Shown here: in pieces, positions 26,603 to 43,673 of the stretch
Numbering within the stretch: position 1 is the stretch's first letter
How the letters are laid out: every line of letters starts with the position of its first letter
Position numbers and translations under genes: made by a program
Sequence record: DRR723986_29597
Direction: 5' to 3' (one strand)
Length of the DNA: 43,673 nt
Notes under the pieces: model-generated
Told to the model about the DNA's origin: nothing
Seen by the model: the letters and a program-made list of their open reading frames with translations, nothing else
Databases searched by the model: none

Positions 26603-26610
26603 CAAAGGTA
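26603..26610 (-). promoter_or_regulatory. -7 box (TACCTTTG) for der
   Basis: TAnnTTTG match 16 nt upstream of the start. Confidence 0.6.
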
Positions 26611-26677
26611 GTATTAAATCTTATATTTAATTTAAAAGAAATTATGTAAATTGAAGATGTTACTGCATTACCTGATT

Positions 26678-27198: not shown

Positions 27199-27201
27199 TA
27201 G

Positions 27202-28080: not shown

Positions 28081-28096
28081 CTAATTTATTTTTTTT

Positions 28097-28104
28097 CAAA
28101 GTTA
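28097..28104 (-). promoter_or_regulatory. -7 box (TAACTTTG) for era
   Basis: TAnnTTTG match 16 nt upstream of the start. Confidence 0.6.
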
Positions 28105-28270
28105 CAACCTTTAATTCCATTGGAGAGATTAAATCTTAAACGAAGAAAAATTGACTTTTTTAATGGATTAAAAATAGAAATATTTACATATAATTTTAAT
28201 CTTAAGTCTATTGGTATGATTTATGATACTATTAATATGTTTTGTAATCCAAGTATAATAAAAATATTAA

Positions 28271-28603
28271 ATGAAACTTTTACTTTTCCTTTTTACACTA
28301 TTTTTTGGAGTCTCGTGTTTTGCACAAAAAGTTTATTCTGTAGAATATGAAAATCAGGCAGATGCAAAGGTATACGTAGTGAACTATGAAAATCAGGCTG
28401 ACCTAAAAGTATATAAGGTTAAATATTCAAATCAGGCAATAAATAATATTGGTAAATGGTTTTTTACAACCTATCGTAATCAAGCAAGTAAGACTTTGTT
28501 TTTTGTTGATTATGAAAATCAGGCTGATTTTAAAATTTACTTTGTTGAATACGAAAACCAAGCAGGCTGGCGTAATAAATCCAAACAACATTTTATGTTT
28601 TAA
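28271..28603 (+). CDS. Secreted 13-aa repeat protein (DUF6150-like)
   Basis: Signal peptide followed by six KVY.V.YENQAD-type repeats. Confidence 0.85.
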   Translation: MKLLLFLFTLFFGVSCFAQKVYSVEYENQADAKVYVVNYENQADLKVYKVKYSNQAINNIGKWFFTTYRNQASKTLFFVDYENQADFKIYFVEYENQAGWRNKSKQHFMF

Positions 28604-28828
28604 CTAGAAAATTGGGAAAGAAAATTAATTGTAGACTTAAATGGTACATTATTTATTTCTATATTCCTAATAAGGGAAAAACCTTTATTAACGTAAGGAG
28701 TTCTATTAGTACTTAAATTTTTATGGTAACTTTTTATTTAGATTATATAACTTTTAAAAAGTTAGAATTTCAAAAGTGAACTAATTACGTTATTTTAGCT
28801 ATAACTTACCGCTTAAGAAAATTACAAA

Positions 28829-31171: not shown

Positions 31172-31437
31172 TCTAGTTTATACATCAAAGGATAGTACTG
31201 CTAGAAAAAAAGAGTTATAAAAAGTTAATAAAGATTTAATATCAAACATTACTTCTAGTTGTATCTTTATTTTATGGATTTTCACTTTACAGACTAAAAA
31301 ATTGTGATTTATACTGATTAAGATAAACTAACTAGACGCTATACTATTGTTCTAATCACAACCCTATTTAAAAAATTTTAGTTGAGTCATTTACCCTCGA
31401 TTACTTTTCGTTGATATAAAATATCATTTTATCGATT

Positions 31438-31454
31438 AATTTTGTTTTGCAAGT
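31438..31454. promoter_or_regulatory. Candidate operator AATTTTGTTTTGCAAGT overlapping a TAATTTTG -7 box
   Basis: Related 17-mers occur at 35945, 40440 and 42195. Confidence 0.4.
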
Positions 31455-31497
31455 AATAATCACACATCTTCATCTTTAATAAATAAATTATATAATT

Positions 31498-32187
31498 ATG
31501 AAGAAATTAATTTTAACCTGTTTTGTAGCTTTTGCTACAGTATCACTTTTTGCTCAAACCATGGCTTTTACATGTATTGAAATAAAAGTAAAACCTTTCA
31601 CTCAAGATAACATCGCTGAGGCTTTTGATAAGGTATTTGAAGATGTTGAAATGAATCAAGGAGGGGTTGTTTTAGAGCGCTTCTGGAATGGTAGAACTCA
31701 TGGAATGACTCACAGAATTGTTTTTATGTACACCTTAGGTGTAGATATGGTAGATGAAGATGCCATCGATCCAAATAAAAATGATGCCTTCTGGTCAAAA
31801 ATGCGGAACTATGTAGAGGAATGGGGCACTTCCTATTCTGGACGAATATTAAGCTGGCAAGAAGGAGATACAGAAGCAAATCCTGATGTTCATATCTGGG
31901 ACATAAAAGCGGCTGATCAAAATCAATTTAAAGAAGGACATGATAAGATCGTAAGTGAATTTGCCGAGGATTTTGCTGGAAGAGTAGTTGGTTTTGGTAC
32001 ATATGACATTGGACGGCCTAATGGAGCTACACATTGGGTAGCCCTAACAGGAAAAGATAGAGAAGATCATTTAATGCTTTATGATAAACTTCAGAAAAGT
32101 CCAAAATTTATGGAGCTAATTTTATCACGAGGCGAGGTGGAAGACGTAAAAGATTATGAACTACAAATTTTGAGACGCAAACAATAA
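31498..32187 (+). CDS. Secreted hypothetical protein with two tandem ferredoxin-like (dimeric alpha+beta barrel-like) domains
   Basis: Signal peptide (..LFAQ) and internal repeat NGRTHGMTHRIV / IGRPNGATHWVA. The fold is inferred. Confidence 0.6.
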   Translation: MKKLILTCFVAFATVSLFAQTMAFTCIEIKVKPFTQDNIAEAFDKVFEDVEMNQGGVVLERFWNGRTHGMTHRIVFMYTLGVDMVDEDAIDPNKNDAFWSKMRNYVEEWGTSYSGRILSWQEGDTEANPDVHIWDIKAADQNQFKEGHDKIVSEFAEDFAGRVVGFGTYDIGRPNGATHWVALTGKDREDHLMLYDKLQKSPKFMELILSRGEVEDVKDYELQILRRKQ

Positions 32188-32214
32188 GAATTATCATATT
32201 GTTAAATAAATTAT

Positions 32215-32253
32215 AAAAAATCCTGATTTTTTAATAAAAATCAGGATTTTTTT
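32215..32253 (+). terminator. Intrinsic terminator
   Basis: Perfect inverted repeat AAAAAATCCTGATTTTT-TAAT-AAAAATCAGGATTTTTT ending in a T tract, 27 nt after the stop. Confidence 0.9.
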
Positions 32254-32305
32254 ACTTCATAATGATAGATTAACAACAATTTGTTACCTTTGTTTTATAA
32301 ATCTG

Positions 32306-32758
32306 ATGAATTTAAACCTTACATGCGCAATAGCGCGATCAACCGATTTACTCGGTGACAAATGGTCTTTATTGATATTAAGGGACATGTTGTTACACAA
32401 GAAGTCGCGTTTTAAAGAGTTTATGGAATCAAAGGAGAAAATCGCAACCAATATTTTAACGAATAGAATCAAAAATCTTATTGATGCCGATTTAATTACC
32501 CTATTAGATGTAAATAGTAATAAAAAAAGCAGGCGCTATATAGTAACAGACAAGGGTATGCTCACATTACCTATCATAATGGAACTTTACATGTTTTCTA
32601 TTAGCGATATAGCTGAATCAGATTTAAATGAACAACAGCTTCACATCAAACAACAAATTTTGTCTAACAGAGAATTATTTGAAAGTACTAAAAGGATTGA
32701 CTACCTAGCTTTTAAAAAAGGTTTATTAAGCGATATAAGCGAAATGCAATTAGTGTAA
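32306..32758 (+). CDS. HxlR-family winged-helix regulator
   Basis: TCAIARSTDLLGDKWSLLILRD...RFKEF..S.EKIATNILTNR...Y.VTDKG, with an N-terminal Cys. A -7 box TACCTTTG lies at 32285-32292. Confidence 0.92.
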   Translation: MNLNLTCAIARSTDLLGDKWSLLILRDMLLHKKSRFKEFMESKEKIATNILTNRIKNLIDADLITLLDVNSNKKSRRYIVTDKGMLTLPIIMELYMFSISDIAESDLNEQQLHIKQQILSNRELFESTKRIDYLAFKKGLLSDISEMQLV

Positions 32759-32824
32759 GCTTAAAATTATCTTATTCGTTAAAGTTGTAAGTGCTTTTCC
32801 TCTCTTAAAATTTTAAGCTTACCA

Positions 32825-33340
32825 CTATTCATTGTCTTGTTTAACCCTCTCATAAACATAAAATTTTTGAATTTCACCATTTTTAATTAAAGCATCATGC
32901 ACCTGAACTACTTTCACATCTGTACCATCCACAACTAAAGTCAAATCATGACCTGATGTTACCCACTGCATTAAGTTTCCCTCATTGTCCTCTACTTCAT
33001 TGGCGATATAATATTTAGGACTCCATTTAGGTTCATTATCTTTAAACCAGGCCATAAGGAATTCTGCATGTGCCTGCGACCCATCGATAAATTCTCCTCG
33101 TGGACCGTAAGCCTTGAATCCCTCAGCATTCATAGATTTTATTGCCTCTATGTCTCTATTGTTGTGCGCATCTATATATTTTTCCCAAATTGATACTGTA
33201 GACATTTCACCTGCATTTAAATCCAAACGCTCTCCTTTATCCGATATTTCTACACCTATTTGGGTATCTTTAGTCTCTTTCGTTTTAGAATTACAACTAA
33301 AAATTATAATTAGTACCAATAGTAAACTATACTTTCTCAT
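32825..33340 (-). CDS. NTF2/SnoaL-like lipoprotein
   Basis: Lipobox IFSC, WEKYIDAHNNRDIEAI, and terminal hairpin DALIKNGEIQKFYVY. Confidence 0.8.
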   Translation of the reverse strand: MRKYSLLLVLIIIFSCNSKTKETKDTQIGVEISDKGERLDLNAGEMSTVSIWEKYIDAHNNRDIEAIKSMNAEGFKAYGPRGEFIDGSQAHAEFLMAWFKDNEPKWSPKYYIANEVEDNEGNLMQWVTSGHDLTLVVDGTDVKVVQVHDALIKNGEIQKFYVYERVKQDNE

Positions 33341-33401
33341 TAGATTATTTTTTAAATTTTTGAATATTTAATTTATAATTTTTGTTTTAAAAACCTTGAT
33401 T

Positions 33402-33629
33402 CTATTTACCATTTTGAATGGGAGTAGTATCTGGCATCATTTTGTTCAAAATTGCATAGACAGGGCAAAATTTTGTTAATGGGCTTACTATTTGAAGTGC
33501 AGCAGTTGCCACGGCAATCCAAATAAAATCAATATTTACTTGAGTTGCTAAAATTGCTGAAATTAAATATATAAATCCCACAATAGCATCGTGAGCTCTT
33601 ACTTTTAAAATATCTTTTCTGTTTTGCAT
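33402..33629 (-). CDS. DUF2892 (YgaP-like) small membrane protein
   Basis: Two TM segments followed by LQ.VSPLTKFCPVY.IL. Confidence 0.85.
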   Translation of the reverse strand: MQNRKDILKVRAHDAIVGFIYLISAILATQVNIDFIWIAVATAALQIVSPLTKFCPVYAILNKMMPDTTPIQNGK

Positions 33630-33650
33630 AATTTTATTTTTTTATTTAAT

Positions 33651-34337
33651 TTAAAAATCCATTACTCGTACCATCATAGTCGTCGTTACTACTTTTCTTA
33701 TACCGGCTGCATCTTTTGAAAAAGATGCAAATAAATCGTCAGATAGCATTTGTTTTGTTTGCCTTAGAGACGACTCCACGTCATTAGCGCCAATCCATAC
33801 AAAGTGCGTGAAATCTTTTACCTTACCAATGATTGGATAACCAATTCCATAAGAATTATTTTCAAAACCTAATTTTTTCGCCATAGTCTGAGTAAATTCT
33901 TTAAATATATTTAGATAAGCTTGAGTATCAGAAATATCAAGCTGATAAATCATAAATGCTTGATCATTTGACCAGTCATTTTTATACCATAAAGGTGTAT
34001 TTAGTGCTTGATTAATCCCTTCTGTAAATTTTCCTAACTTTTCACCGAAAAGTTGGGCTTCTGTCGACAAACTCCACGAAGTGAAGAAATTGGCAAATGC
34101 CACTTCGTCCGGAAAACAAAATTGAATAGAATGTGTTGCTTGGTTTGGACCATTAAACTGGTAAGAAAACAATGATTTTGTTCCTTGAATGTTCTTTCCC
34201 CAGCCTGTGTCCATCATACCTTTAAGAGTACTAACTACCATTTCGGGCTCAGTTGCCTTGAAGTCAAAGAATGCACAATATTGAGCATTAACGGCCATCG
34301 TACATATAGTACAGATAATAAAAATATATTTTTTCAT
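33651..34337 (-). CDS. Secreted hypothetical protein with two tandem ferredoxin-like domains
   Basis: Signal peptide (..VNAQ) and repeated FNGPNQATHSIQF / IGKVKDFTHFVWI. Similar size and layout to 31498-32187. Confidence 0.6.
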   Translation of the reverse strand: MKKYIFIICTICTMAVNAQYCAFFDFKATEPEMVVSTLKGMMDTGWGKNIQGTKSLFSYQFNGPNQATHSIQFCFPDEVAFANFFTSWSLSTEAQLFGEKLGKFTEGINQALNTPLWYKNDWSNDQAFMIYQLDISDTQAYLNIFKEFTQTMAKKLGFENNSYGIGYPIIGKVKDFTHFVWIGANDVESSLRQTKQMLSDDLFASFSKDAAGIRKVVTTTMMVRVMDF

Positions 34338-34423
34338 AAGATAAAATTTAGTTTGTATTAATAAGTAATAAATAATTAAAATGTTGATTTTATTGTAATA
34401 GCATTTCGTAATCTCGGTAAAAT

Positions 34424-35332
34424 CTAAAAATCTCTTGCAAATTGAGTCATAGAGGTAATTTTACCATCTAAATCAAAATAGAATATTTCAAACAGCTCCT
34501 TTTCCCACACTTTTCCATTTTTAAAAACTCTTTTCTCTTTTGACATCACTTGTACTCCAGAAGCTGCGTCAGTATTATAAATTTTTAGAGGAACTATAGC
34601 ATATGGAACCCATTCTACAGATGTATATTCATCAAATAGATTGGGTAAATCTGACTTATTAAGCTCTAAACGTTCCCCTGTATATACATTTAAAACAGTA
34701 TTTTCAGCAAAAGGTTTTACAAATTCCTCAATATTCATATCGTTATAATCTTTTATGAGTTTTTCTATAATCGCTACCTCATTTCTATCAGAAAACACAA
34801 GAGGTCTGCCACTATATTCATTCTCTCCCTTTCCAATAAATTTACCACCATAAGATTTTCCAAAGTTTGAAGAATCAATGGATTTCCATTGTTTAAAAGC
34901 GTCTACTTTACCGTCTTTATTAAAATTAAAAAACTCCATTAAATCTAACTTTTCATAAGATCCATTCTTGTAGTGGCGTTCTTCTTTTGACCAAGCTAAC
35001 ACCTTAGTATCGTCATCACCCTCAAGTTGCACAGGAATAACCACATACGGCTTCATACTAATTGAATCCATAGATTCCAACCATGCTCTGGTACTTTCCA
35101 CACCATTCTCTCCTAAAAACGTTGAGTCATAATGTTTTACAAGCTCTTCAGTATTTTTTTCACTGTAGGCTTCAGATAACATTAATAGTTTATCTGCCAT
35201 TGCATCATTACCAATACTATAGGCATTGCCGTTATTATCACCCTCACCTAAATACTGACCTCCAGTAGTATTACAGCTTGTTATTAAGCAAAGAGTACAA
35301 AAAAATGCTATTCGTTTTAAAAGTGTCTTCAT
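34424..35332 (-). CDS. Lipoprotein with two tandem NTF2-like domains
   Basis: Lipobox ITSC and duplicated unit GG.(Y/F).G.G.N...PY..(I/V)P...SKE.R.(Y/F)KNG...E.F.F..DGK.....Q(W/F). Confidence 0.8.
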   Translation of the reverse strand: MKTLLKRIAFFCTLCLITSCNTTGGQYLGEGDNNGNAYSIGNDAMADKLLMLSEAYSEKNTEELVKHYDSTFLGENGVESTRAWLESMDSISMKPYVVIPVQLEGDDDTKVLAWSKEERHYKNGSYEKLDLMEFFNFNKDGKVDAFKQWKSIDSSNFGKSYGGKFIGKGENEYSGRPLVFSDRNEVAIIEKLIKDYNDMNIEEFVKPFAENTVLNVYTGERLELNKSDLPNLFDEYTSVEWVPYAIVPLKIYNTDAASGVQVMSKEKRVFKNGKVWEKELFEIFYFDLDGKITSMTQFARDF

Positions 35333-35484
35333 GATAGTTTTATTATATTATTATTGATTTAGATTTATGTTATAAGTTAAAATATATTGACCATATGTGT
35401 TTGGTTTATAGATGAATAACCATATTTAATTGATTAAAAACACAATACAAGTCCATAGCCTACCAAATTAAACCGAATTAATTA

Positions 35485-35901
35485 TCAAAGTGCCCAAATA
35501 TTAGTGACACGTCCTTGTTCATCCAATTTAAATACTTCAACCGCATCAAATTTTTCACCTGCTTTGGTCGTAAGTTTTAGATAGCAAGTTACATAAGGTC
35601 CGTGTTCGGTTATATCTACTAATTCTTGAATAAGTTCCGTTTCTGTCACAAAACCAAAAATTACACTATTGATTTCATCAGCACCTCTAGCCTCGAGGCC
35701 AAGACCTGGAGCAACCATATGATAATCTGATGTCGTGGGAACTTTTGACCATGCCTCAAACCCCTCTTGCCACTTAAAATTTATTTTATAGGTTTTAATA
35801 GCTTCAGCTGTAGCTGATAAATTATTTGAAGTCTCTTTTGATGTTTGACAAGAGAAGGAAAAGATTAGGATTACAGCTAAAATAATATGTCTTATTTTCA
35901 T
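35485..35901 (-). CDS. NTF2/SnoaL-like lipoprotein
   Basis: Lipobox SFSC, ARGADEI, and C-terminal AVEVFKLDEQGRVTNIW. Confidence 0.7.
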   Translation of the reverse strand: MKIRHIILAVILIFSFSCQTSKETSNNLSATAEAIKTYKINFKWQEGFEAWSKVPTTSDYHMVAPGLGLEARGADEINSVIFGFVTETELIQELVDITEHGPYVTCYLKLTTKAGEKFDAVEVFKLDEQGRVTNIWAL

Positions 35902-35944
35902 TTTATTATTTATTAATTCATTTAAAATGAAAAATAAAACTATT

Positions 35945-35961
35945 AATTTTAAAATGCAAGT
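35945..35961. promoter_or_regulatory. Candidate operator AATTTTAAAATGCAAGT
   Basis: Lies 43 nt upstream of the 35901 start; member of the recurring 17-mer. Confidence 0.4.
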
Positions 35962-36000
35962 AATTAAGATAGATTTGTTAGCGATTTATAAAATTTAATC

Positions 36001-36036
36001 AAAGAAAAAGAGAATCTAAAAATTAGATCCCCTTTT
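36001..36036 (-). terminator. Intrinsic terminator
   Basis: Minus strand GGGGAUCUAA-UUU-UUAGAUUCUC stem (two G-U pairs) followed by UUUUUCUUU. Confidence 0.75.
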
Positions 36037-36181
36037 AATTATTGCAGATAGCATAATATAACACAGCCATCTTAAAAGAACGCCTATCCAGAGACTAAAT
36101 CCACTACTTTTAATGTAATAAAGTGAAAAAATAGTAAGGGATTAGTTCTTCTTATTGGCCTTAATCGTATTTTCCTGTTTT

Positions 36182-36985
36182 TCAATTACTAAATGAAGAA
36201 TAATCAGTATTTGGAAATACTGGGATTAATCCTTGTTGCCCTCCCTCACAAAGAGCCATAACTTTTTGTGCCATTTTGCTTTCATCATCATTAAATCTCC
36301 AGTCAAGATATTTTTGATAATGCTCATATGATGCCCAATCTCCGTAAATATAATATGTGTAGGTCTCATCGTTAAAAAATGCCTCAAGAGATAAACTACC
36401 GTCATAGTCTCTTGTTGTTTGTAAACCATCAGGAGTATTAAGAAGATCTATTATAGCCTGTTTTTTACCTGGCAAAACCTTAAGGGTAACTAAAACCGGA
36501 TTTTTAGGACCAACAGCTTGCATCATTCCTCCATAATCAAAAAAGTCTCCTTGAGCGATAACCTTACCATCTGCATCAAAGTTAAAGTACCAATAGCCAC
36601 TTAGGTTTATCTGTTTTCCTGTAGTGGAATTTTTTCCTGTCCAGGTACCATACGTCCTAACACTTCCATCTGGTTTTAGAGACAATGTATCAACACCAGG
36701 GAGCCAAGCTTGAGCATTGTATTTAACATCCTCAAAATTATCATGATATCCTTTTAACATAGATGCATATACATCATAACCCATTGGCTCTGAAGACCCA
36801 TACATTGGTGTATATATTTTAATATCCTCACTTACTAGAGCAAGCTGTTCGTCAAGCTTCTCTTCTCCATGAAGTTCAAATAATTTTTGTGCTGTTGCTA
36901 AGTTTTTTTCATAATTAGGATTACCACTACATGAAACGAAAAGTATTACTGTAATCGCTAAAATTATTTTTTTTAAAGTTTTCAT
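36182..36985 (-). CDS. Lipoprotein: SnoaL-like domain fused to ABM-like (quinol monooxygenase-type) domain
   Basis: Start MKTLKK at 36985, lipobox FVSC, VRTYGTWTG...TGK...FNFDADGKV...DFFD, then LKVLPGK...TRDYDGSLSLE...WASYEHYQKYLDWR. Confidence 0.8.
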   Translation of the reverse strand: MKTLKKIILAITVILFVSCSGNPNYEKNLATAQKLFELHGEEKLDEQLALVSEDIKIYTPMYGSSEPMGYDVYASMLKGYHDNFEDVKYNAQAWLPGVDTLSLKPDGSVRTYGTWTGKNSTTGKQINLSGYWYFNFDADGKVIAQGDFFDYGGMMQAVGPKNPVLVTLKVLPGKKQAIIDLLNTPDGLQTTRDYDGSLSLEAFFNDETYTYYIYGDWASYEHYQKYLDWRFNDDESKMAQKVMALCEGGQQGLIPVFPNTDYSSFSN

Positions 36986-37017
36986 ATTATATAATTTATT
37001 AGTTAAAGTATTTAAAA

Positions 37018-37884
37018 TTAATATATCCAACCACCGATATTACCACGGTAATCTACAGGATAAGCTTTGATGCGCTCTCTCAAGCCTTCAGAAGTATTAC
37101 CAGCAATTACAAAAGATTTAAACGTAAACATTTTCATGAAAGTTGCAATGTTGGGTCCATTCTCAAAATTATCAACATGGTAAATAAAATCTTCTGACGT
37201 TCTAAATTTTTCAATTAAAGTAATGCGTTTGCCATCTTCAGAAATAAAATAACTATAGTCATAAGTGTTGGGTTCCTTCGTACGGATAAAATTGTTTAAT
37301 TTTTCTAAAAATGCTTTTACATCCTCTGTAGAGTAACCTGGATTAACCGTCATATCTATATTGGCAACCACTTTTTGTGATGTATTATTTGCTGCATCTT
37401 TTGCATTCATTTCTTTTTCAATTACTGATGTATCAAAAAATTGAACCTCTTTTATAATTTTATCTCCCTCCCATTGATATGATATATGAAATGGAAAAGC
37501 TACACTTTGACCCGTATATTTGCCTGTGGCAGAGAAAGTATTCCAAATATTAGTCCAAACAATACCGTTATTGTAGGTAGCGGTTTCAACCTCTGATCCT
37601 AATGCATCTCCATCCATGTTTTCCACCGTTATTTCATCAAACAGATCGTATAGATTTTCTACCCCTGCAATAAACCCTAACTTATCAAGCTTATTACCTT
37701 GTGGATTAATAAATTGCATACTATCAGAAAATATTTCTTTTAAATAATCAATATTTTCCTCACCAACTTTTTGAAATAAAGTTTTTATTATTTGAGATTT
37801 TTCATCGTTAGTTGTAAGATTAGCGTAAGGCTCGTTACATGTATACAATGACAAACCTAGTATAAGAATAATTATTTTTTTCAT
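37018..37884 (-). CDS. Lipoprotein: NTF2/SnoaL-like domain fused to ABM-like domain
   Basis: Lipobox LYTC, W....TGKYTG..V.FPFH...QWEGDKIIKEVQFFD, then EPNTYDYSYFISEDG..ITLIEKFRTSEDFIYH. Confidence 0.8.
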   Translation of the reverse strand: MKKIIILILGLSLYTCNEPYANLTTNDEKSQIIKTLFQKVGEENIDYLKEIFSDSMQFINPQGNKLDKLGFIAGVENLYDLFDEITVENMDGDALGSEVETATYNNGIVWTNIWNTFSATGKYTGQSVAFPFHISYQWEGDKIIKEVQFFDTSVIEKEMNAKDAANNTSQKVVANIDMTVNPGYSTEDVKAFLEKLNNFIRTKEPNTYDYSYFISEDGKRITLIEKFRTSEDFIYHVDNFENGPNIATFMKMFTFKSFVIAGNTSEGLRERIKAYPVDYRGNIGGWIY

Positions 37885-37891
37885 TTTTAAG

Positions 37892-38398
37892 TTATTTGAT
37901 TATTGGTCTTGAGAACTGATTTATTTTAGTTATTTTCCCGTTAACAAACTGGAAAGCTTCCATCCAATCATATTTAGCTGAATTACCATCAGGAAGTACA
38001 ATTTTAGCATTATCCCAAAGAAGCACCCACTCGTCTCCGTTATCACCTGTTACTGAAAAGTTTATATCCACTTCATAATCTTGAATTTTAATTAATGAAA
38101 AGTTGTCAGTCATATGCTTCATAACAGTTGCTTTACCCTCTAAAATATAACCATCCTCAAGGATAAAAATAATATCATCTGAAAAAAAAGTTGAGGCCAT
38201 CTGAAAATCTTTATCTATAAGATATTGATGCATCTGCTGGATTTTTAAAACCAATTCATTATTCCCAATATTAACATTGTCTAGGTATGATGCTTCATAT
38301 ATATACTCTATTTTTTCTGTATGCTCTTTTGTTTTAGTTTTTTGATCTTGATTACACGAAAATGTAATTAAAATCAAAATAAATAATAAGTTTTTCAC
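37892..38398 (-). CDS. NTF2-like lipoprotein
   Basis: GTG start, lipobox TFSC, FFSDDI.F...DG...EGK, DEWVLLW, EAFQFVNGKITKINQFSR. Confidence 0.82.
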   Translation of the reverse strand: MKNLLFILILITFSCNQDQKTKTKEHTEKIEYIYEASYLDNVNIGNNELVLKIQQMHQYLIDKDFQMASTFFSDDIIFILEDGYILEGKATVMKHMTDNFSLIKIQDYEVDINFSVTGDNGDEWVLLWDNAKIVLPDGNSAKYDWMEAFQFVNGKITKINQFSRPIIK

Positions 38399-38455
38399 TG
38401 TTTTAAATTTTATTTGATAATAGTTTAAAAACTGTCTTTGTTTTTAATTTGATTT

Positions 38456-38980
38456 TTATTCGGATTGCACCCATTTCCTAACTCCTATAATTTTATTGTC
38501 TTGAATGTAATGTTGCTCAAAAAATCTGTAAGTTTCTATTGATCCATCTTTTGTATATCTATTCTCTGTAAACGATAACATAATTTTATTCAAGGTATTA
38601 TCATAAGAAGGTATTAATGGAATTACCTCTTCTATAGTGCGTGTTATTGAATCATAAGGTGCATGCATTGATTTAATTAGAGAGATTCCAGTATCTAAAT
38701 CAAAAACTAATTTTTCCAATCCTTTCTCAGGATAAAAAAACATTGAATCCCTAAAATTCTCTTTAGACATAAAATTATAATCCTTGTTCACAAATGCATT
38801 AGAAAAGGAAACCGCTAATTCTGCTGCCTGATTACTACCTAAGGCATAATTTGAATTCTTATTGGGACCATCTAAAATAAAACCAGCAGATGTATCCACT
38901 GATTCTATATTACTTTGTTGACATCCTAACATTAAAATGAAGCATATCAAGCAGTATAATGGGGGTTTTATAGTATTCAT
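38456..38980 (-). CDS. Probable NTF2-like lipoprotein
   Basis: Lipobox MLGC. FSNAFVNKD and FTENRYTKDGSIE...FEQHYIQDNKI resemble the domains of 34424-35332. Confidence 0.65.
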   Translation of the reverse strand: MNTIKPPLYCLICFILMLGCQQSNIESVDTSAGFILDGPNKNSNYALGSNQAAELAVSFSNAFVNKDYNFMSKENFRDSMFFYPEKGLEKLVFDLDTGISLIKSMHAPYDSITRTIEEVIPLIPSYDNTLNKIMLSFTENRYTKDGSIETYRFFEQHYIQDNKIIGVRKWVQSE

Positions 38981-38993
38981 AACGTATAGTTTT

Positions 38994-39509
38994 TTAGTTT
39001 AAATGCTGACTCAAAAATCCAGTAACATCAAAAAAATCGTTAAATAAATAAATCTGACCATCACTATTGAAACGCATTAAGGCCATCCATTTATGACTTA
39101 CTGCCTTACCAGTTTCAGCATGCGTATGGTGCCAATTACCGTAAACTCTAATATCATTAGGATTATCACTTGTTTCTTCTGAACTATAGGTGCTGCCACC
39201 AAAAAACTTTATATCCCTTAACTCGTGATTATCATACATGGCTATATAACCGTCTAATGCTGCCATTAAAACCTCCTTAGTTTCATAATCATCTATTAAG
39301 ATTTTATCTGGACCACTCCATTTTAATGAATCTGCAAAATACTGAGAAAACTTATCGCTTTCTTCTGCCGACATAGCTGCCAACATAGATTTAATTCGTT
39401 CTGTATTTTCTTTAAATTTTAATTGATTTTCGGATGATATATCTTTAACCGTTTCCCCAGTTTCACAGGAGACAACTAATACCAATAATATAATTTTTAA
39501 ATATTTCAT
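38994..39509 (-). CDS. NTF2/SnoaL-like lipoprotein
   Basis: Lipobox VVSC, YFADSLKWSGP, IRVYGNW..TH.ETGK.V, MRFNSDGQI....DFFD. Confidence 0.82.
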   Translation of the reverse strand: MKYLKIILLVLVVSCETGETVKDISSENQLKFKENTERIKSMLAAMSAEESDKFSQYFADSLKWSGPDKILIDDYETKEVLMAALDGYIAMYDNHELRDIKFFGGSTYSSEETSDNPNDIRVYGNWHHTHAETGKAVSHKWMALMRFNSDGQIYLFNDFFDVTGFLSQHLN

Positions 39510-39511
39510 AA

Positions 39512-39937
39512 TTACTCTTTTACTTCAGATGCTTTAAACTTCAATGTTTTGTTTACAAAGTCAGCGATACCACTGACTATATATGTTTTTTCATTAGTAA
39601 GGTTATCAAGTGCATACATTTTAAATACTTTACCTTGTTTTCTATAAACACCTTGTGTTGTTCCTTTTATAATTTCTTCTTCCATTTGAGTCCATATAAA
39701 ACCGGTAAATTCACCGCTTTCCATACTGTCATTATGGTTTGTAAATACATAAGATAAATAAACTCTCCCATAAGGTCCTGCCTCACCTGTGGCAGATAAT
39801 TCATAATTTACTCCATCTTTGGTATGAACAGCATCGATTATAAATTCTGCATTTATCAATGCACTTGAATCCCATTTTAAATCTTGTGCAAACGAAACAC
39901 TTACAAACAAGAACAATACATAAACTACTTTTTTCAT
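39512..39937 (-). CDS. Secreted hypothetical all-beta protein
   Basis: Signal peptide (..SFAQ) and Gly/aromatic beta-strand pattern GEAGPYGRVYLSY, GEFTG, QGVYR. Confidence 0.7.
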   Translation of the reverse strand: MKKVVYVLFLFVSVSFAQDLKWDSSALINAEFIIDAVHTKDGVNYELSATGEAGPYGRVYLSYVFTNHNDSMESGEFTGFIWTQMEEEIIKGTTQGVYRKQGKVFKMYALDNLTNEKTYIVSGIADFVNKTLKFKASEVKE

Positions 39938-39965
39938 TTGATTTGTAATTAAAGTTTAAATATGA

Positions 39966-40385
39966 TTAATTCCCAGAAAGCATTTTTTTGAATGCCTCTA
40001 AATCAAATTCGTTTCCATAAAAGAGTGTGCTCATTTTCATTATATCAGCAGCAATTAAAACAGCAGTTTTAATTTCATCTTCTGTTGCACCTAATCGTTT
40101 TAATTCCGATATATGATATGGTATACAATACTGGCATTTTACGGCGGCCGAAGTTCCTATAGCAACTAGATGTGCTTCTTTCTCCGCAATTGCCCCTTCT
40201 TTGTATAACCCCATCTGTGCTTTAAAATATGCATCAGAGCTTTTTAGTATAGAACTAGGATAAACCGAATTAAATGGACTATTTTCTAAAATAGATTTTT
40301 TTTCTTCAGCTGTTAATACTCCATCTTGGGCCATACCATAAATTGAGATGAACATTAGAGCTAATAAACAAATGATTTTTTTCAT
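39966..40385 (-). CDS. Carboxymuconolactone decarboxylase/AhpD-family protein with signal peptide
   Basis: KEAHLVAIGTSAAVKCQYCIPYH....KRLGATEDEI. Start MKKIICLL at 40385. Confidence 0.88.
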   Translation of the reverse strand: MKKIICLLALMFISIYGMAQDGVLTAEEKKSILENSPFNSVYPSSILKSSDAYFKAQMGLYKEGAIAEKEAHLVAIGTSAAVKCQYCIPYHISELKRLGATEDEIKTAVLIAADIMKMSTLFYGNEFDLEAFKKMLSGN

Positions 40386-40439
40386 AATTAATTGATTTGA
40401 TTTCTTAAATTTTTTATTGAAATACAAGCTTAAATTATT

Positions 40440-40456
40440 AATTGCTTTTTGCAACT
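40440..40456. promoter_or_regulatory. Candidate operator AATTGCTTTTTGCAACT (TTGC-N5-GCAA palindrome)
   Basis: Lies 54 nt upstream of the 40385 start. Confidence 0.45.
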
Positions 40457-40679
40457 TAAATCGATAATGTCATTCTTTATTCGATAATATGACAGAAATA
40501 GAATCCATTTAGCTAGTCAGATCTTCTTATCAAAACTGAAAAATCCTTTTTCAACTTAGAATGTACTCTTTTATTTTAATAGAATTATTAATATTATTGA
40601 TAAGAGATTTAAACATATTAATTTTGATTATCCTAAGTCCATTATTTAAAGGTAACGTACAACGTAATCGATTACTAAC

Positions 40680-40949
40680 TTAACTGCCTGCAAAAGGAGT
40701 TTCAAGAATACCTACTGCCAACTCTGCCCATATTAACATAAATATTAAAACTAATATTCCAATGTATAAAAGGCGGTTTTTTACATTATTTGTTCGGTTA
40801 CTCATAAAATTAATTCCAATACTTAGCAAAAAGAGTAGAGAACCCATAATAATGAAATCAAATGGACTCCAGTTGATCTCATTAGTGATAGACATCCCAA
40901 TTAATGGAATTAACAACAGAGAAAGAGGATAGAACATTCTTTTTGACAT
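40680..40949 (-). CDS. Small three-TM hypothetical membrane protein
   Basis: LLLIPLI.M....EINWS.FDF..MG.L...LIWAELAVG, a conserved hypothetical pattern. Confidence 0.8.
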   Translation of the reverse strand: MSKRMFYPLSLLLIPLIGMSITNEINWSPFDFIIMGSLLFLLSIGINFMSNRTNNVKNRLLYIGILVLIFMLIWAELAVGILETPFAGS

Positions 40950-40961
40950 ATATAAAAACAC

Positions 40962-40995
40962 AAAAACGGTTACACCTTAATGGTATAACCGTTTT
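40962..40995 (-). terminator. Intrinsic terminator
   Basis: Minus strand AAAACGGUUAUACC-AUUAA-GGUGUAACCGUUUUU. Confidence 0.85.
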
Positions 40996-41026
40996 ATTGT
41001 TTCAGTAAACAAACCTATTTAAATAA

Positions 41027-42154
41027 TTATTCAGGTATTCCAACTCCATTTTTATTAGGAGCCCATGAGCTATGCATAATTTTCCATCCTTGATCAGTGT
41101 TAACCCAAACGGAAGAACCTCTTGTACTGTAAGCAACCTCTTTGTCGGTATCATTAAAAATATAACTTCCTGATGCATAAAATGTGAGAACAGCTGTTTT
41201 CATATCTGGAGAATAATTCACATCCATATTTTCTAATTCAAAACTTTTCCAAGTAATTACTCGTTCCCTCTCAAATGAGGCTTTATTAAACGTATAAAAT
41301 GGTGACAAATTAGAATCTCCTGTCATATGATTAATATCTTGATGCATAAACTTTGAATATGTCTCATAGTCATTTGCTGTTATTGCATCTTGAGCTTCTT
41401 TTTGATTTTTTATTAATTGTTTAGAGATATCCTCTTGGTTCACTTTTGCATAATATATTCTTGCAAAATTCCAATAAGGGGAACCAAATTGGGCAAAATC
41501 AACTGCTTTCAATTGAAGTTCTAGTGCTTTTTGATATTCCCCTATAGATGCATAGTGTTCTGCCATTGAATCATAAGAGTTTGGTCCATAGTGCATCTGT
41601 TGAGAACGTTCTACATAATCCATTGCCATCTCTTGATTTGGCTCACCATAATCTCCTCTTAAATAAGCATACGACATCATATTATAAGATGCCGACGCTT
41701 GCTCAGGAAATTTTTCAGCAAATGTTTTAAAAGTATTAAAATCAGCTGGTGTTGTAGCCAACCAGTTAATTAAGGGACTTTCCGGATGTTCTGCCATTGC
41801 TGATTTTGCAACATCAGGTCTATCTTCTCGGGAGGTCATAAGAAAACTATGCCATGTTTTTTCTTCAGCACTAAGTTTTGAAACATCTATAGCTTCAAGC
41901 TTTGATTTTTGACTTCCCCAATTTAAGTTTGGGCTACTAACAGCAGCTAAAACTAGTTGGGCACATCCACAATTTGGATCTAACAACAGTGCTGCCTTGG
42001 CAATTCCCATGGCAGATAAATACTCAAGGTTCGCTATTGATTCTATTGCTGCGTTAGTGATTTTTTCAGCACTCTTCTTACAAGATGATTTTTGAATCCA
42101 TTGAGCATTAGAAATACTCGAACTCAAAACTAGAAGAATAAATAATTTTTTCAT
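41027..42154 (-). CDS. Secreted TPR-like protein with C-terminal NTF2-like (DUF4440/SnoaL_3) domain
   Basis: Signal peptide, TPR-like ALLLDPNC, ASYNMMSYAY and PNSYDSMAEHY...GEYQKA, and C-terminal RGSSVWVNTDQGWKIMHSSW. Confidence 0.8.
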   Translation of the reverse strand: MKKLFILLVLSSSISNAQWIQKSSCKKSAEKITNAAIESIANLEYLSAMGIAKAALLLDPNCGCAQLVLAAVSSPNLNWGSQKSKLEAIDVSKLSAEEKTWHSFLMTSREDRPDVAKSAMAEHPESPLINWLATTPADFNTFKTFAEKFPEQASASYNMMSYAYLRGDYGEPNQEMAMDYVERSQQMHYGPNSYDSMAEHYASIGEYQKALELQLKAVDFAQFGSPYWNFARIYYAKVNQEDISKQLIKNQKEAQDAITANDYETYSKFMHQDINHMTGDSNLSPFYTFNKASFERERVITWKSFELENMDVNYSPDMKTAVLTFYASGSYIFNDTDKEVAYSTRGSSVWVNTDQGWKIMHSSWAPNKNGVGIPE

Positions 42155-42194
42155 GATTTTTGATATATTGATTTACATCAAACATAAAATTATT

Positions 42195-42211
42195 AATTGT
42201 ATTATGCAAGT
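42195..42211. promoter_or_regulatory. Candidate operator AATTGTATTATGCAAGT
   Basis: In the divergent gap between 42154(-) and 42292(+). Confidence 0.45.
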
Positions 42212-42291
42212 TATAATATAACAAGTATATTTATTATGTAATAAACTGTCTATTTTGACAATTAAAACTTTAAACAATTAAATTATATATT

Positions 42292-42831
42292 ATGAAAGAG
42301 TCTGAAAAAACCAATGAATCATTACCTTTTTCTGAGATAGGCCCCTATGCTGATAATTTTACCACTGAAACAGTAATCACCCGATTAATTGAAGGGTTAG
42401 GGTTCAGATATTACTGGGCCACTGATGGCCTAAGAGATATTGACCTCTCATACAAGCCTAGTGACGATAGTCGATCTTCATTAGATGTTTTAGAGCATAT
42501 TTATGGCTTAACAGAAATGGTCATTTATGCATTTCATAATAAAGAGTATCCTACAGAAACTAAATATGAAATGTCCTTTAGTGAATATAGAACTAAGACA
42601 TTGTTAAATCTTAAAAAAATGTCTGATATGCTAATAAAAGAAGTTAAAATCTCTGAAGTCTCAGTAAAAATTAATTTCGGTGGTCAAAGTATGTCTTTTC
42701 CATTTTGGAATGCTATTAACGGTCCCTTATCAGATGCTATCTGGCATACCGGACAAATCGCATCAAATAGAAGAGCTAGCGGAAATCCTTTTAATTCCAG
42801 AGCACAGGTATTCTTAGGTAAATTAATGTAG
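42292..42831 (+). CDS. DinB-like four-helix bundle protein
   Basis: GLGFRYYWATDGL...L.Y.P....RS...VLEHI and D.IWHTGQI...RR. Confidence 0.78.
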   Translation: MKESEKTNESLPFSEIGPYADNFTTETVITRLIEGLGFRYYWATDGLRDIDLSYKPSDDSRSSLDVLEHIYGLTEMVIYAFHNKEYPTETKYEMSFSEYRTKTLLNLKKMSDMLIKEVKISEVSVKINFGGQSMSFPFWNAINGPLSDAIWHTGQIASNRRASGNPFNSRAQVFLGKLM

Positions 42832-42850
42832 CGCTAAATTTTACAGTAAT

Positions 42851-42899
42851 AAAAATAAAAACGGTTAACTATATAATAGTATAACCGTTTTATTTTTTT
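42851..42899. terminator. Bidirectional intrinsic terminator between convergent genes
   Basis: AAAAATAAAAACGGTTA...TAACCGTTTTATTTTTTT inverted repeat. Confidence 0.85.
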
Positions 42900-42943
42900 G
42901 AGTAGCGGGAATATTCCAAATATCAAAACATATTTTTACACCT

Positions 42944-43207
42944 TTATCCCAAAGACGTAAATTGAAACATTTCATTTGAAATACCGTTCTTTTTGATTAC
43001 TTCAGCTCTTTCAGGAGTAGATAATATTTCTTTCAATTTACTCATGTCAACATCAAACAATAGAACAACAAAGTTATTATTGTCTATTTTACTAATTGTT
43101 GTCTTAGATTCATCACAACATTGTGCTCTTGTTTCTGACAATTCAATAAAGTCTTTATATACCGCGTTATAACTTGACGTGCATTTCCCTTTAATTACTA
43201 AATTCAT
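42944..43207 (-). CDS. Small hypothetical protein, probable ferredoxin-like (DUF3764-like) fold
   Basis: 87 aa, RAQCCDESKT...KID......LFDVDM..L. The fold is inferred from the secondary-structure pattern. Confidence 0.6.
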   Translation of the reverse strand: MNLVIKGKCTSSYNAVYKDFIELSETRAQCCDESKTTISKIDNNNFVVLLFDVDMSKLKEILSTPERAEVIKKNGISNEMFQFTSLG

Positions 43208-43312
43208 TTTTATTTATTTAAAGTTAAAAAAGCTTGTAGATGCAATCTACAACTACTAATATTTAAAGTTGCAGCACAGCTAAATAATTTGATAAATTAA
43301 AATAAGTTTTAA

Positions 43313-43673
43313 TTATTCCATTGCCGCGATTACAGGTGCTCCGAGAATTCCTACAACACTATATGTGTTTGTTAAGTCTACTAATTCAGCAAACATGGCT
43401 TCACGTTGTTGACCTAAAGTCATATGAGCCTGAACACCTTCAGGGCCATTATAAATTTCTGTTAAACCATAAAGTGTGTTTCCTGTTTCACCACTATTAG
43501 GATCGAAAGGATTATTCAATTCTGGGGACTTAAATACAGAATAAGATAAGACAATGGGTTCTTGATCACCAGATAGGTGATGGGTTTCCCGCATAAACTG
43601 TTCATGTGATGTAATAAACTGATCCATTCTTTCCGTAGCCTCATTTGGCACTACAAATGATACATGAAAACCA
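43313..43673 (-). CDS. Hypothetical ABM-like protein (5' end outside window)
   Basis: Frame is open to the window edge (GFHVSFVVPNE...). SHEQFMRETH, Y...K.PE..NP.DP.S..TG.TLY.LTEIY..PEG..AH. Confidence 0.7.
   Translation of the reverse strand, partial: GFHVSFVVPNEATERMDQFITSHEQFMRETHHLSGDQEPIVLSYSVFKSPELNNPFDPNSGETGNTLYGLTEIYNGPEGVQAHMTLGQQREAMFAELVDLTNTYSVVGILGAPVIAAME

Follow-up and report, generated by a model that had tools for sequence, protein, structure and literature searches.

The sequence record DRR723986_29597 (43,673 nt, referred to in its whole length as the window) ends in an island of ∼12 kb, from position 31498 to 43673, in which small exported proteins of the NTF2/SnoaL-like type are densely clustered. 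The region belongs to a marine flavobacterium of the Winogradskyella type, in whose genome it is an accessory island, and it looks mobile. Genes are designated here by the first coordinate of their open reading frame (ORF) in the window, and their positions and strands between 31498 and 43673, according to ORF listing and family scans, are those of an earlier map. Nine genes on the minus strand, between 32825 and 42154, encode ten NTF2/SnoaL-like domains, namely 32825, 34424 (two domains), 35485, 36182, 37018, 37892, 38456, 38994 and 41027. The core of the island is most likely a single minus-strand operon of seven genes, from 40385 to 36182, coding for an AhpD/CMD protein, an orphan of 141 amino acids (aa) and five NTF2/SnoaL-like lipoproteins, two of which end in an antibiotic biosynthesis monooxygenase (ABM) domain. 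Around it, in separate units, lie four other exported NTF2-like proteins, two exported tandem-ABM-like proteins, a DUF2892 protein, an HxlR regulator and a cytoplasmic DinB-type protein. All folds and families found in the island are already known; the part for which full-text searches gave no earlier description is their combination and their arrangement in arrays.

The count of nine genes and ten domains, proposed in a preliminary description of this DNA, holds when Pfam, AlphaFold2/Foldseek, hhalign and BLASTP results are brought together. Curated Pfam cut-offs are passed by only two of the nine genes, 37892 (SnoaL_2, PF12680, 30.2 bits against a cut-off of 27) and 41027 (DUF4440, PF14534, 34.7 bits against 25.2; SnoaL_3, PF13474, 27.1 bits against 22), the N-terminal part of the latter being helical with faint Sel1/TPR matches. 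Matches to NTF2-clan families below the curated cut-off were obtained for 36182, 37018, 38994 (SnoaL_2, E 2.3e-4) and 32825 (SnoaL_2, E 2.5e-4; DUF4440, E 3.9e-3; SnoaL_3, E 5.3e-3), and the Pfam scan for NTF2-like families gave no match for 34424 and 38456. The paralogues are also linked to each other: 38994 finds 36182 by BLASTP (E 4e-8), 34424 finds 38456 (E 1e-6), and 38456 together with both halves of 34424 forms one family that aligns with the 36182 family over 135 columns (hhalign 95%, E 2.4e-8). Likewise, 37018 aligns with the 36182 family over 207 columns that cover both domains (hhalign 93%, E 2.6e-7). The weakest call is 35485, which has a DUF4904 match below cut-off (E 1.2e-3), an hhalign score of 84% against the 36182-family alignment over 85 columns that are partly signal peptide, and one of 1% against the alignment of the 38456/34424 family.

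Structural support comes mainly from 36182, for which an AlphaFold2 model with 25 family members as input reached a predicted local distance difference test (pLDDT) value of 87. For residues 21–162, the top Foldseek matches are all NTF2-like (E 2e-7 and weaker). Limonene epoxide hydrolase (LEH, PDB 5aif) is matched with a target-normalised template modelling (TM) score of 0.83 in Foldseek and a Z of 16.2 in VIA-align, the highest VIA-align Z (16.5) being that of 1s5a; SnoaL2, ketosteroid isomerase (KSI), AknH, Lsd19 and many NTF2-like proteins of unknown function are also among the neighbours. The N-terminal domain of 36182 is accordingly modelled as a cone-shaped alpha+beta NTF2 fold, a prediction that profile comparison (and profile comparison only) extends to 37018, 38456 and 34424. 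At the sequence level, the 36182 family profile searched against PDB sequences gave no alignment to SnoaL/LEH/KSI enzymes at E ≤10. Among the 25 aligned members of the family, whose identity goes down to 44%, the lipobox Cys and 37 further columns (38 in all) show no variation. D106, S108, R110 and Y112 alternate along one strand, Y131 and Y133 lie on the next, and D150, Y62 and Y80 are invariant as well; these residues would presumably face the cavity. The family comprises 234 relatives (sequence clusters, E ≤1e-5) in a large protein collection, all unnamed or automatically named, with labels such as ‘hypothetical protein’, ‘quinol monooxygenase YgiN’ or ‘antibiotic biosynthesis monooxygenase’.

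Export is readable directly from the translations. A lipobox of the form [LVIFST]-x-[SGT]-C, with its Cys at residues 15–20, is present in eight of the nine NTF2-like genes (as read from the motif), and 41027 is the only one with a type-I signal peptide, in agreement with the eight lipoboxes and one classical signal peptide of the preliminary description. The eight are predicted to be bacterial lipoproteins, and in the 36182 family the lipobox Cys is conserved in 25/25 members. The mutual divergence noted earlier was also confirmed, the NTF2-like paralogues being 20–27% identical where alignable by BLASTP, so that recent tandem duplication is not involved and the paralogues are old.

Six ABM-type domains had been proposed, of which four are retained (31498, 33651 with moderate support, and the C-termini of 36182 and 37018) and two, in 42944 and 43313, are not. 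The C-terminal ∼100 residues of 36182 and 37018 form an ABM-type domain: both proteins score below the 23.1-bit cut-off of the ABM family (PF03992), with 16.1 and 17.9 bits, respectively, orthologues score 23.3 to 30.5 bits, the family profile finds PDB 3fgv (E 5e-6) and IsdI (E 1e-3), and residues 163–256 of the model have a beta-alpha-beta-beta-alpha arrangement. A conserved Trp of the family aligns with the IsdI Trp in ‘WES’. The Asn/Trp/His triad of IsdG-type enzymes is incomplete in this alignment, with no Asn ahead of the first strand and with Y226/L227 at the place of the haem-ligand His, which we take to be ten residues after the Trp.

The exported protein 31498 has no Pfam family and is modelled (pLDDT 77) as a tandem ferredoxin-like barrel. 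Foldseek matches 3f44, 2pgc and 3mcs at E ∼1e-7, and 2pgc, a marine-metagenome protein of unknown function, superposes over ∼200 residues (VIA Z 17.6, root-mean-square deviation 2.9), with Z values of 15.8 for 6qpa and 15.4 for 3f44. After 2pgc, the neighbours are the tandem ‘putative monooxygenases’ 3f44/3mcs, sulfur oxygenase reductase and the anthrone-oxidase-like 5f9p. Searched against PDB sequences, the family profile gave one match, a designed WD40 repeat recognised through ‘hIWDIk’, which is an artefact. T71-H72-R73, H148, H179, E60, E107 and D170 are invariant in the family, for which a metal site is conceivable; its second-best structural neighbour, sulfur oxygenase reductase, is an iron enzyme. 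Probably, 33651 is a distant paralogue with the same tandem ferredoxin-like architecture, as suggested by its alignment with the 31498 family over 166 columns (hhalign 78.5%, E 1.7e-5); its nearest named Atlas cluster, NIPSNAP (0.89), is only a lead. The ABM assignment of 43313 (127 aa in its full form, with no signal peptide) was dropped, given an LsrG match at E 0.47, nothing relevant in the PDB profile search and an hhalign score of 0.2% against ABM-containing families, and the searches with 42944 returned no match at all.

The remaining exported and regulatory proteins are assigned more simply. The calls of an exported AhpD/CMD protein with a CxxC motif, a DUF2892 protein and a Cys-containing HxlR regulator are all backed by scores above family cut-offs. 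Thus 39966, starting with the ATG at 40385 and the signal peptide MKKIICLL..., is confirmed as an exported AhpD/CMD-family protein with a CxxC...H motif (KCQYCIPYH), on the basis of CMD (PF02627, E 5.4e-14, 52.4 bits against 23) and of the AhpD core domain (TIGR00778, 30.4 bits against 27.8); it is far under the equivalog cut-offs for AhpD or PcaC, and family scans of the window revealed no AhpC partner. DUF2892 (PF11127) is found in 33402 with 28.7 bits against 25.3, and HxlR (PF01638) in 32306 with 43 bits against 20.8, Cys7 of the latter, in ‘TCAIARSTDLLGDKW’, being a candidate sensing residue. The DinB-like call on 42292 is confirmed through homologues: the protein has no Pfam match of its own, and among 22 aligned homologues DinB_2 is matched in 12, DinB in 10 and MST in 7. 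Its family profile finds PDB 3dka (E 7e-4) and 3gor (E 5e-3), and H69, D148 and H152, a putative His/Asp/His metal triad, are invariant; DinB-type proteins have a four-helix-bundle, thiol-transferase fold. The orphan 39512 has 146 homologue clusters, none with a Pfam family, and Atlas and homologue searches lead to unnamed clusters only; its match to 1zmb (E 0.0025 over 73 residues) was judged spurious, the domain being too small for that fold. The coordinates of all features are collected in Table 1.

Table 1. Genes, sites and hairpins of the island and of its left flank in the window (promoter-like, terminator-like and operator assignments are predictions)
Feature	Position	Strand	Basis or remark
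Stretch nearly identical to G001	26435..43673		95–100% identity; holds the 5′ end of der, era, DUF6150 and the entire cluster
780-aa lipoprotein with C-terminal trypsin-like protease domain	28829..31171	+	Pfam Trypsin_2, E 2.4e-24
Exported 229-aa protein, type-I signal peptide, predicted tandem ferredoxin-like/ABM-type fold	31498..32187	+	AlphaFold2, Foldseek, VIA
Hairpin with 17-bp stem between 31498 and hxlR	32215..32252		Terminator-like on both strands
Perfect palindrome TAACAACAATTTGTTA, candidate autoregulatory operator	32271..32286	+	20 nt upstream of hxlR
HxlR-family winged-helix regulator, Cys7 in N-terminal helix	32306..32758	+	Pfam HxlR, E 4.1e-11
171-aa lipoprotein, NTF2/SnoaL-like, moderate support	32825..33340	-	Sub-cut-off Pfam; lipobox IFSC
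75-aa membrane protein, YgaP-like transmembrane domain (DUF2892)	33402..33629	-	PF11127
Exported 228-aa protein, probable distant paralogue of 31498	33651..34337	-	hhalign
302-aa lipoprotein, two NTF2-like domains	34424..35332	-	BLASTP, hhalign
138-aa lipoprotein, DUF4904-like, weakest NTF2-like call	35485..35901	-	Pfam, hhalign
Shared motif ATTAATT-N6-TGCAAGT	35942..35961	+	Minus-strand reading TTG-N20-TATTTTTC; promoter-like site for 35485
Terminator-like hairpin downstream of 36182	36006..36036	-	14 pairs then T run; end of seven-gene operon
267-aa lipoprotein, N-terminal SnoaL/NTF2-like and C-terminal ABM domains	36182..36985	-	Best conserved member
288-aa lipoprotein, second NTF2-ABM two-domain protein, divergent paralogue of 36182	37018..37884	-	hhalign
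168-aa lipoprotein, SnoaL_2	37892..38398	-	Pfam, above cut-off
174-aa lipoprotein, NTF2-like, no Pfam match	38456..38980	-	BLASTP, hhalign
171-aa lipoprotein, NTF2/SnoaL-like	38994..39509	-	SnoaL_2; BLASTP to 36182
Exported 141-aa protein, unnamed marine family	39512..39937	-	Homologue clusters
Exported AhpD/CMD-family protein, CQYC...H motif, first gene of operon	39966..40385	-	CMD, TIGR00778
Copy of shared motif at operon head	40437..40456	+	Minus-strand reading TTG-N19-TAAGCTTG; promoter-like site for operon
93-aa hydrophobic ORF, uncertain gene	40680..40961	-	No family; skipped in variant RNA contigs
Terminator-like hairpin immediately following 41027	40963..40995	-	Hairpin search
375-aa exported protein, type-I signal peptide, C-terminal DUF4440/SnoaL_3 NTF2-like domain	41027..42154	-	Pfam
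179-aa cytoplasmic DinB-superfamily protein	42292..42831	+	Homologue families, PDB profile match
87-aa cytoplasmic ORF, no assigned family	42944..43207	-	ABM claim unsupported
3′ part of 127-aa cytoplasmic protein, unnamed marine family, truncated by window end	43313..43673	-	ABM claim unsupported

The genes 39966, 39512, 38994, 38456, 37892, 37018 and 36182 most likely constitute one operon, because the gaps between them are short (2–57 nt from 39966 to the start of 36182 at 36985), a promoter-like site precedes the first gene and a terminator-like hairpin (36036–36006) follows the last. The start of 36182 is the ATG at 36985 and not the TTG at 37030. The promoter-like site belongs to a motif, ATTAATT-N6-TGCAA(G/C)T, with exactly four perfect copies in the window (31435, 35942, 40437 and 42192), all intergenic and within the island, and none in 20 kb of adjacent DNA of G001, the nearest comparison genome. 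In three copies, read in gene orientation, a TTG, a spacing of 19–20 nt and a TAnnTTTG-like box lie upstream of 35485, 39966 and 41027, and these three sites fit what we take to be the Bacteroidota promoter consensus. Generic scans of the window were at or near chance, both for TTG-N19-TAnnTTTG (3 found and 1.9 expected) and for sigma-70 sites (80 found and 71 expected). With its own promoter-like site and its own terminator-like hairpin (40995–40963), 41027 is separate from the operon, and so are 35485 and, further on, the genes 34424 to 32825. In total, the cluster has at least five transcription units. Control of the operon by HxlR is not supported: the palindrome upstream of hxlR has no second exact copy in the window, and looser matches with two mismatches occur there at chance frequency (13 found and 10.9 expected). 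Hairpins resembling one another (AAAACGGTTA...TAACCGTTTT) are found at several gene ends, in the window at 40955–41002 and 42851–42898 and on contig C5 of G001 near 150122, 155612 and 156498, and could be copies of one terminator-type element; a contig from one RNA library links 42867 back to 40977 via these recurrent hairpins.

Six metatranscriptome runs from four studies, picked because they contain a stretch of the island, hold 37–54% of the sampled words of 33400–41000. In one of them (X14), contigs cover 36241–37826, 37907–39229 and 39217–40419, so that every junction of the operon is bridged except that between 37884 and 37892. Depth in this run is zero in 9 of 12 bins of 28000–34275 (≤2.5 in the other three) and zero over 42644–43673. 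These contigs are taken as evidence that the island is transcribed in natural communities and as compatible with the operon, on the understanding that contigs are no proof of a single transcript and that RNA libraries can contain DNA. Co-expression of the cluster, suggested earlier as a check, is in this way partly borne out, by the bridged junctions of the seven-gene block and by the one promoter-like site and one terminator-like hairpin on either side of it. The contig over 38994–39966 stops at 40419, only some bases past the promoter-like -7 box on its downstream side; RNA ends are not visible in contigs, and the stop is possibly a coincidence. Variant contigs from RNA libraries, belonging to other strains, are missing single parts of the island. 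One, in a single run, is without 33390–34377 (DUF2892 and 33651), and others skip 37902–38419 (probably 37892, in another run) and 40412–40991 (40680 and the promoter region of the operon), with other letters possibly standing between the two sides.

The distribution of the array was analysed in species-representative genomes scanned with 36182, which gave 42 loci. The entire array occurs elsewhere only in L008, where it is 99% identical; L021 and L009 contain fragments, and L035 has part of the array. The other 41 loci have at least two NTF2-like ORFs in 12 cases, one in 28 and none in 1, many of these comparison contigs being short, and a 31498-like gene lies within 10 kb of the 36182 relative in 10 of the 41. 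The triad of 32825, HxlR and 31498 is repeated in L019 and L035, with parts of it in L012, L015 and L038. SnoaL mini-clusters of different membership, accompanied by DUF2892, DoxX_2, DUF4396 or HxlR, exist in L019, L023, L024 and L036, and L035 is likewise among the loci with mini-clusters built independently. Within the genus, 1 of 61 sampled genomes gave a match to the 36182 protein (E ≤1e-10); within the taxonomic family, its family profile matched 25 of 401 genomes, or 17 of 302 genera (E ≤1e-40), the complete two-domain SnoaL-ABM form being present in 8 of the 401. Carriers have mostly 1.1–2.2 Mb (21/25 genomes ≤2.2 Mb), sizes that are rough since several are incomplete metagenome-assembled genomes. 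The 31498 family is also present in 25 of the 401 genomes, 17 of which contain both families, and 39512 is found in 4, all with the 31498 family. Neighbourhood conservation, which had been put forward as another check, does not extend to the array as a unit, the full set having been seen only in the near-identical L008. In G001 (2.8 Mb), SnoaL_2/DUF4440 domains occur at nine places (E ≤0.01), five of them inside the 12-kb island, i.e. 0.4% of the genome, which bears out the dense cluster described earlier. The enrichment in NTF2-like genes is real and recurrent, and its composition is fluid.

Orthologues of 36182 are 70–88% identical across many lineages, and several rearranged forms were encountered. 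In L035, which belongs to a different genus, one ORF (9968–10783) joins the NTF2 domain of the 70%-identical orthologue to a DUF4904 domain like that of 35485 in the place of ABM, a deletion or a domain swap within the array. In L036 (10007–10800), the SnoaL and ABM halves are two overlapping ORFs, either by a real split or by an assembly frameshift. Outside the island, G001 has a single-domain paralogue of 174 aa (C4:145452–145925), 45% identical to the NTF2 domain of 36182, and in small pelagic genomes the single-domain form is commoner than the two-domain form. A plasmid collection gave no match to island DNA or to the 36182 protein.

The cluster sits in a variable slot adjoining era. In G017 and G006, two genomes of the genus, a leucine-rich repeat (LRR) gene lies 4.5–10 kb from era with different genes between, and in two more genus genomes the era neighbourhood is different again; a cytosine methyltransferase block is one example of what the slot contains. 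Since the LRR–era interval differs in content among four genus genomes, the island is seen to fill a variable slot. Past the point that corresponds to the right end of the window, the island continues in G001 (L007:13402–19375) with an AraC regulator, a lipocalin-like lipoprotein, YceI, a DUF5777 outer-membrane barrel, an acetolactate-decarboxylase-like lipoprotein and two cytochrome-c-like lipoproteins (CxxCH-like motifs), i.e. with more exported small-molecule-type folds, and only then come the LRR gene and a resistance-nodulation-division (RND) efflux system.

Identity to G001 changes abruptly within the window. Positions 1–20171 are collinear with G001 and 64–75% identical, another genome of the genus (G031) being closer at 85%, and der (25282–26586, minus strand) is ∼82% identical up to 26434. 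Left of 26435, identity to G001 is 64–87%; right of it, identity is 95–100% to the end of the window, with 98.7% over 27019–28747 and 98.4% over 31171–43673. At the break inside der, mismatches occur every 3–15 nt up to 26434 and are sparse beyond. It reflects either a recent inter-species exchange of at least 17 kb, including the whole cluster, or a chimeric contig joined inside der. An exact 100-nt junction pattern had no match in metagenome contigs, and a search with the T9SS (type IX secretion system) protein specific to the left part found only relatives at 52–66% identity; neither result separates exchange from chimera. The entire block seems to have been transferred between species in recent times. 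As to the cluster itself there is no doubt, since both G001 and L008 carry it intact. Gene 28829 (2.4 kb; window 28748–31170) is absent from G001 and represents an insertion within the near-identical stretch. More generally, the RNA contigs that skip genes and the fusion in L035 indicate ongoing turnover at the level of single genes.

What the island does can be approached by comparison with enzymes of the same folds. NTF2-like enzymes, such as the SnoaL/AknH cyclases, LEH and KSI, work without organic cofactors, and so do the ABM enzymes ActVA-Orf6, SnoaB, YgiN and IsdG; NAD(P)H, ATP and CoA are absent where exported proteins sit. The N-terminal domain of 36182 shares the cone-shaped fold and the size of the former group, so that comparable cofactor-free chemistry outside the cytoplasm would be feasible for the island proteins, which, however, are lipoproteins or secreted while the known enzymes are cytoplasmic, and which have no biosynthetic or catabolic pathway around them. 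As claimed earlier, neither a SusC/SusD pair nor core enzymes of polyketide synthases or nonribosomal peptide synthetases were found among 48 scanned window ORFs, and family scans of the window revealed no transporter. The C-termini of 36182 and 37018 match the ABM profile and have the conserved Trp in common with IsdI, but they are fused behind an NTF2 domain and lipid-anchored, the island proteins themselves fall below the Pfam cut-off, and they are without a His at the expected haem-ligand place of IsdG/IsdI. In the same way, 31498 superposes on 2pgc, 3f44/3mcs, sulfur oxygenase reductase and 5f9p, but it is exported, has no genuine sequence-level match in the PDB and displays its own invariant His/Glu set. 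The CMD domain, the AhpD core domain and the CxxC...H motif relate 39966 to AhpD/CMD proteins, from which it differs by its signal peptide, the lack of an AhpC partner in the window and scores far below equivalog cut-offs. Finally, 32306 shares its HxlR domain and the Cys of its N-terminal helix with the redox and electrophile regulators YodB and HypR, and the group that it forms with an NTF2 lipoprotein and a tandem-ABM protein (32825/32306/31498) is conserved in L019 and L035.

On these grounds, the reading preferred here is a tentative one, possible rather than probable, namely that small molecules of a hydrophobic, oxidised or electrophilic kind are handled in the cell envelope by cofactor-free proteins. 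It is proposed because of the folds (NTF2 cones and ABM barrels) combined with export beyond the reach of NAD(P)H, ATP and CoA, because of the exported CxxC AhpD-like first gene and the invariant polar pattern of the 36182 family, and because of the company of HxlR, DinB, DUF2892 and DoxX-type genes, here and elsewhere. The lipocalin-like, cytochrome-c-like, YceI and outer-membrane barrel genes that follow in G001, and the co-occurrence of the 36182 and 31498 families, are further points in its favour. The lipoproteins would stand on the periplasmic side of the envelope, possibly with exposure at the outer surface, and would need no cytoplasmic cofactor, their only co-substrates being water and O2. 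NTF2 cones may be catalysts of the hydrolase, isomerase or cyclase type, or tight binders, of hydrophobic molecules, the ABM barrels may be cofactor-free oxygenases or isomerases, and the AhpD-like protein may contribute thiol-based peroxide or disulfide chemistry. Likely substrates would be quinone-type compounds and lipids that are oxidised or electrophilic, either formed in the envelope of surface-ocean cells or arriving there, with HxlR and DinB as a putative cytoplasmic arm of the same electrophile response. The array is no fixed machine; it has grown by accretion of old paralogues in a variable slot, each with closer orthologues elsewhere, single genes being gained and lost between strains.

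Several points weigh against this reading. The role is inferred only from folds, export signals and gene company; sequence identity of 36182 to solved NTF2-like enzymes is 8–22%, a likeness by fold; NTF2 folds are binders or scaffolds as often as enzymes; and the periplasmic CxxC may be a plain disulfide. As a unit, the array lacks conservation (another NTF2-like ORF is missing at 28 of 41 loci, many on short contigs), only 1 of 61 genus genomes has the 36182 family, and the co-occurrence counts are phylogenetically non-independent. As to regulation, the palindrome scan of the window found no operator common to hxlR and the operon, the shared motif may merely be a strong promoter, and a single operon transcript goes beyond what the RNA contigs can prove. 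The word ‘system’, used in the preliminary description for an envelope machinery of this kind, is therefore too strong: the gene content fits an exported cofactor-free theme, but elsewhere the members stand singly or in other small combinations. The anatomy set out in that description is correct almost throughout.

The main rival, though rather unlikely, is a non-catalytic carrier set, in which lipid-anchored NTF2/ABM binders would trap or ferry hydrophobic nutrients, or lipids and pigments made by the cell itself, across the periplasm or at the surface, carotenoids, quinones, isoprenoids and vitamins being the proposed ligands. Binders are indeed close to the 36182 model, with carotenoid-binding CTDH (Foldseek E ∼1e-6) and designed steroid and drug binders (VIA Z 14–15); YceI and lipocalin-like genes adjoin the island in G001, many divergent paralogues would suit many ligands, and the families are retained in very small pelagic genomes. 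Such a set, however, is accompanied by no transporter or TonB-dependent receptor in the family scans of the window, it leaves the AhpD-like CxxC protein of the same operon unexplained, and the invariant Asp, Arg, Tyr and Ser of the 36182 family resemble a catalytic or polar network rather than a greasy pocket.

That the genes have no common function at all, an insertion hot spot having gathered unrelated small exported proteins (NTF2-like lipoproteins being common in Bacteroidota), is doubtful as well. The differently filled LRR–era slot, the solitary occurrence of members in most other loci, the number of transcription units and the variant RNA contigs without single genes (33390–34377 and probably 37902–38419) would be explained in this way. 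It is less easily reconciled with seven genes between one promoter-like site and one terminator, with five of nine detectable SnoaL_2/DUF4440 places of a 2.8-Mb genome within 0.4% of it, with mini-clusters built independently from different members (L019, L023, L024, L035 and L036) and with the presence of the second family in 17 of the 25 genomes that hold one of 36182 and 31498.

Small, divergent exported proteins encoded on the same strand, present or absent gene by gene between strains and apparently exchanged lately between species, could also constitute an orphan immunity array, in which periplasmic lipoproteins neutralise envelope-acting toxins of competitors, comparable to the defence islands that gut Bacteroidales have acquired; Pfam does contain immunity families with an NTF2 fold. 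This is improbable. Among 19 proteins, no Imm-type Pfam family was matched at E ≤0.1, the window contains no toxin, Rhs, recombinase or type VI secretion system (T6SS) gene and G001 no VipB/TssC match, the ABM, AhpD and DinB partners fit badly, carriers are mostly free-living pelagic bacteria with tiny genomes, and the 36182 orthologues, 70–88% identical with an invariant polar pattern, are unlike fast-evolving immunity genes. PADLOC likewise gave no match among the 19 cluster proteins, its only match being to 28829, whose protease domain resembles PADLOC protease models with the domain alone in common. Same-strand small ORFs and gain or loss of single genes are also reminiscent of gene-cassette arrays, and the NTF2-like cassette protein Bal32a (PDB 1tuh) is a structural neighbour of 36182 (Z 15.4). 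However, island genes have their own promoter-like sites and the gaps of the core are too short for attC; Pfam scans of the window detected none of the integrase or recombinase families expected of an integron-type array, and the repeat search, run without an attC model, gave terminator-like hairpins and promoter-like motifs only, with no attC-like repeat. Least plausible is a role as envelope scaffold or assembly factors, with NTF2-like domains as protein–protein modules as in VirB8, the N-terminal domain of PBP2a and Tim44, for even though NTF2 domains do act as scaffolds, a lipoprotein anchor suits envelope complexes and a fold search cannot distinguish function, the top structural neighbours are small-molecule enzymes and binders, no partner machinery genes lie nearby in the window scans, and a patchy accessory distribution (1/61 genus genomes) is unlike that of core envelope machinery. 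The immunity and the scaffold readings are both unlikely, because Imm, toxin, recombinase, T6SS and defence matches are lacking and the orthologues are highly conserved.

If envelope chemistry without cofactors is retained as the preferred reading, a wider proposition can be formulated, which is speculative and quite doubtful as a whole. It would be an undescribed class of lipid-anchored, cofactor-free envelope enzymes in pelagic Flavobacteriaceae, with a core made of a SnoaL-ABM lipoprotein and an exported tandem-ABM protein, joined by varying NTF2-like lipoproteins and an exported AhpD-like thiol protein, which would detoxify or convert oxidised lipids, quinones and algal electrophiles outside the cytoplasm and which would here have expanded to a mobile island exchanged between species. 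In the parts of the literature reached by full-text search, no description was found of the SnoaL-ABM lipoprotein family, of its pairing with an exported tandem-ABM protein or of NTF2-like lipoprotein arrays in marine Flavobacteriaceae. Were the role true, abundant bacteria of the surface ocean, whose very small genomes retain little that is dispensable, would possess a small-molecule chemistry in the periplasm that works without cofactors. The SnoaL-ABM lipoprotein family, with its 234 clusters and its transcription in natural communities, is a concrete and tractable target, and the cultured record L008, which carries the entire island, makes knockouts and biochemistry possible. The island is in addition a case of gene-by-gene turnover, with a possible recent inter-species exchange, in marine Flavobacteriaceae. 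Should the genes prove to be unrelated lipoproteins, the finding would be an ordinary one; its significance would rise if an activity were found or the exchange confirmed.

A few observations concern the surroundings of the island. No tRNA gene was found in the window and no Rfam family in 26000–43673. Between der and era, a patch of ∼94 nt (26925–27018) is unaligned to G001, with flanks 96–100% identical. Left of der, the window encodes two large T9SS-secreted proteins (20183–25265; 868 and 811 aa, with a CHU_C sorting domain and PKD/Ig domains), which G001 lacks, having ∼90 nt there instead, and whose closest metagenome relatives are 52–66% identical. Lastly, the DUF6150 gene (28271–28603) contains three imperfect direct repeats of ∼39–63 nt at 28336–28563, which constitute a repeat inside the protein.

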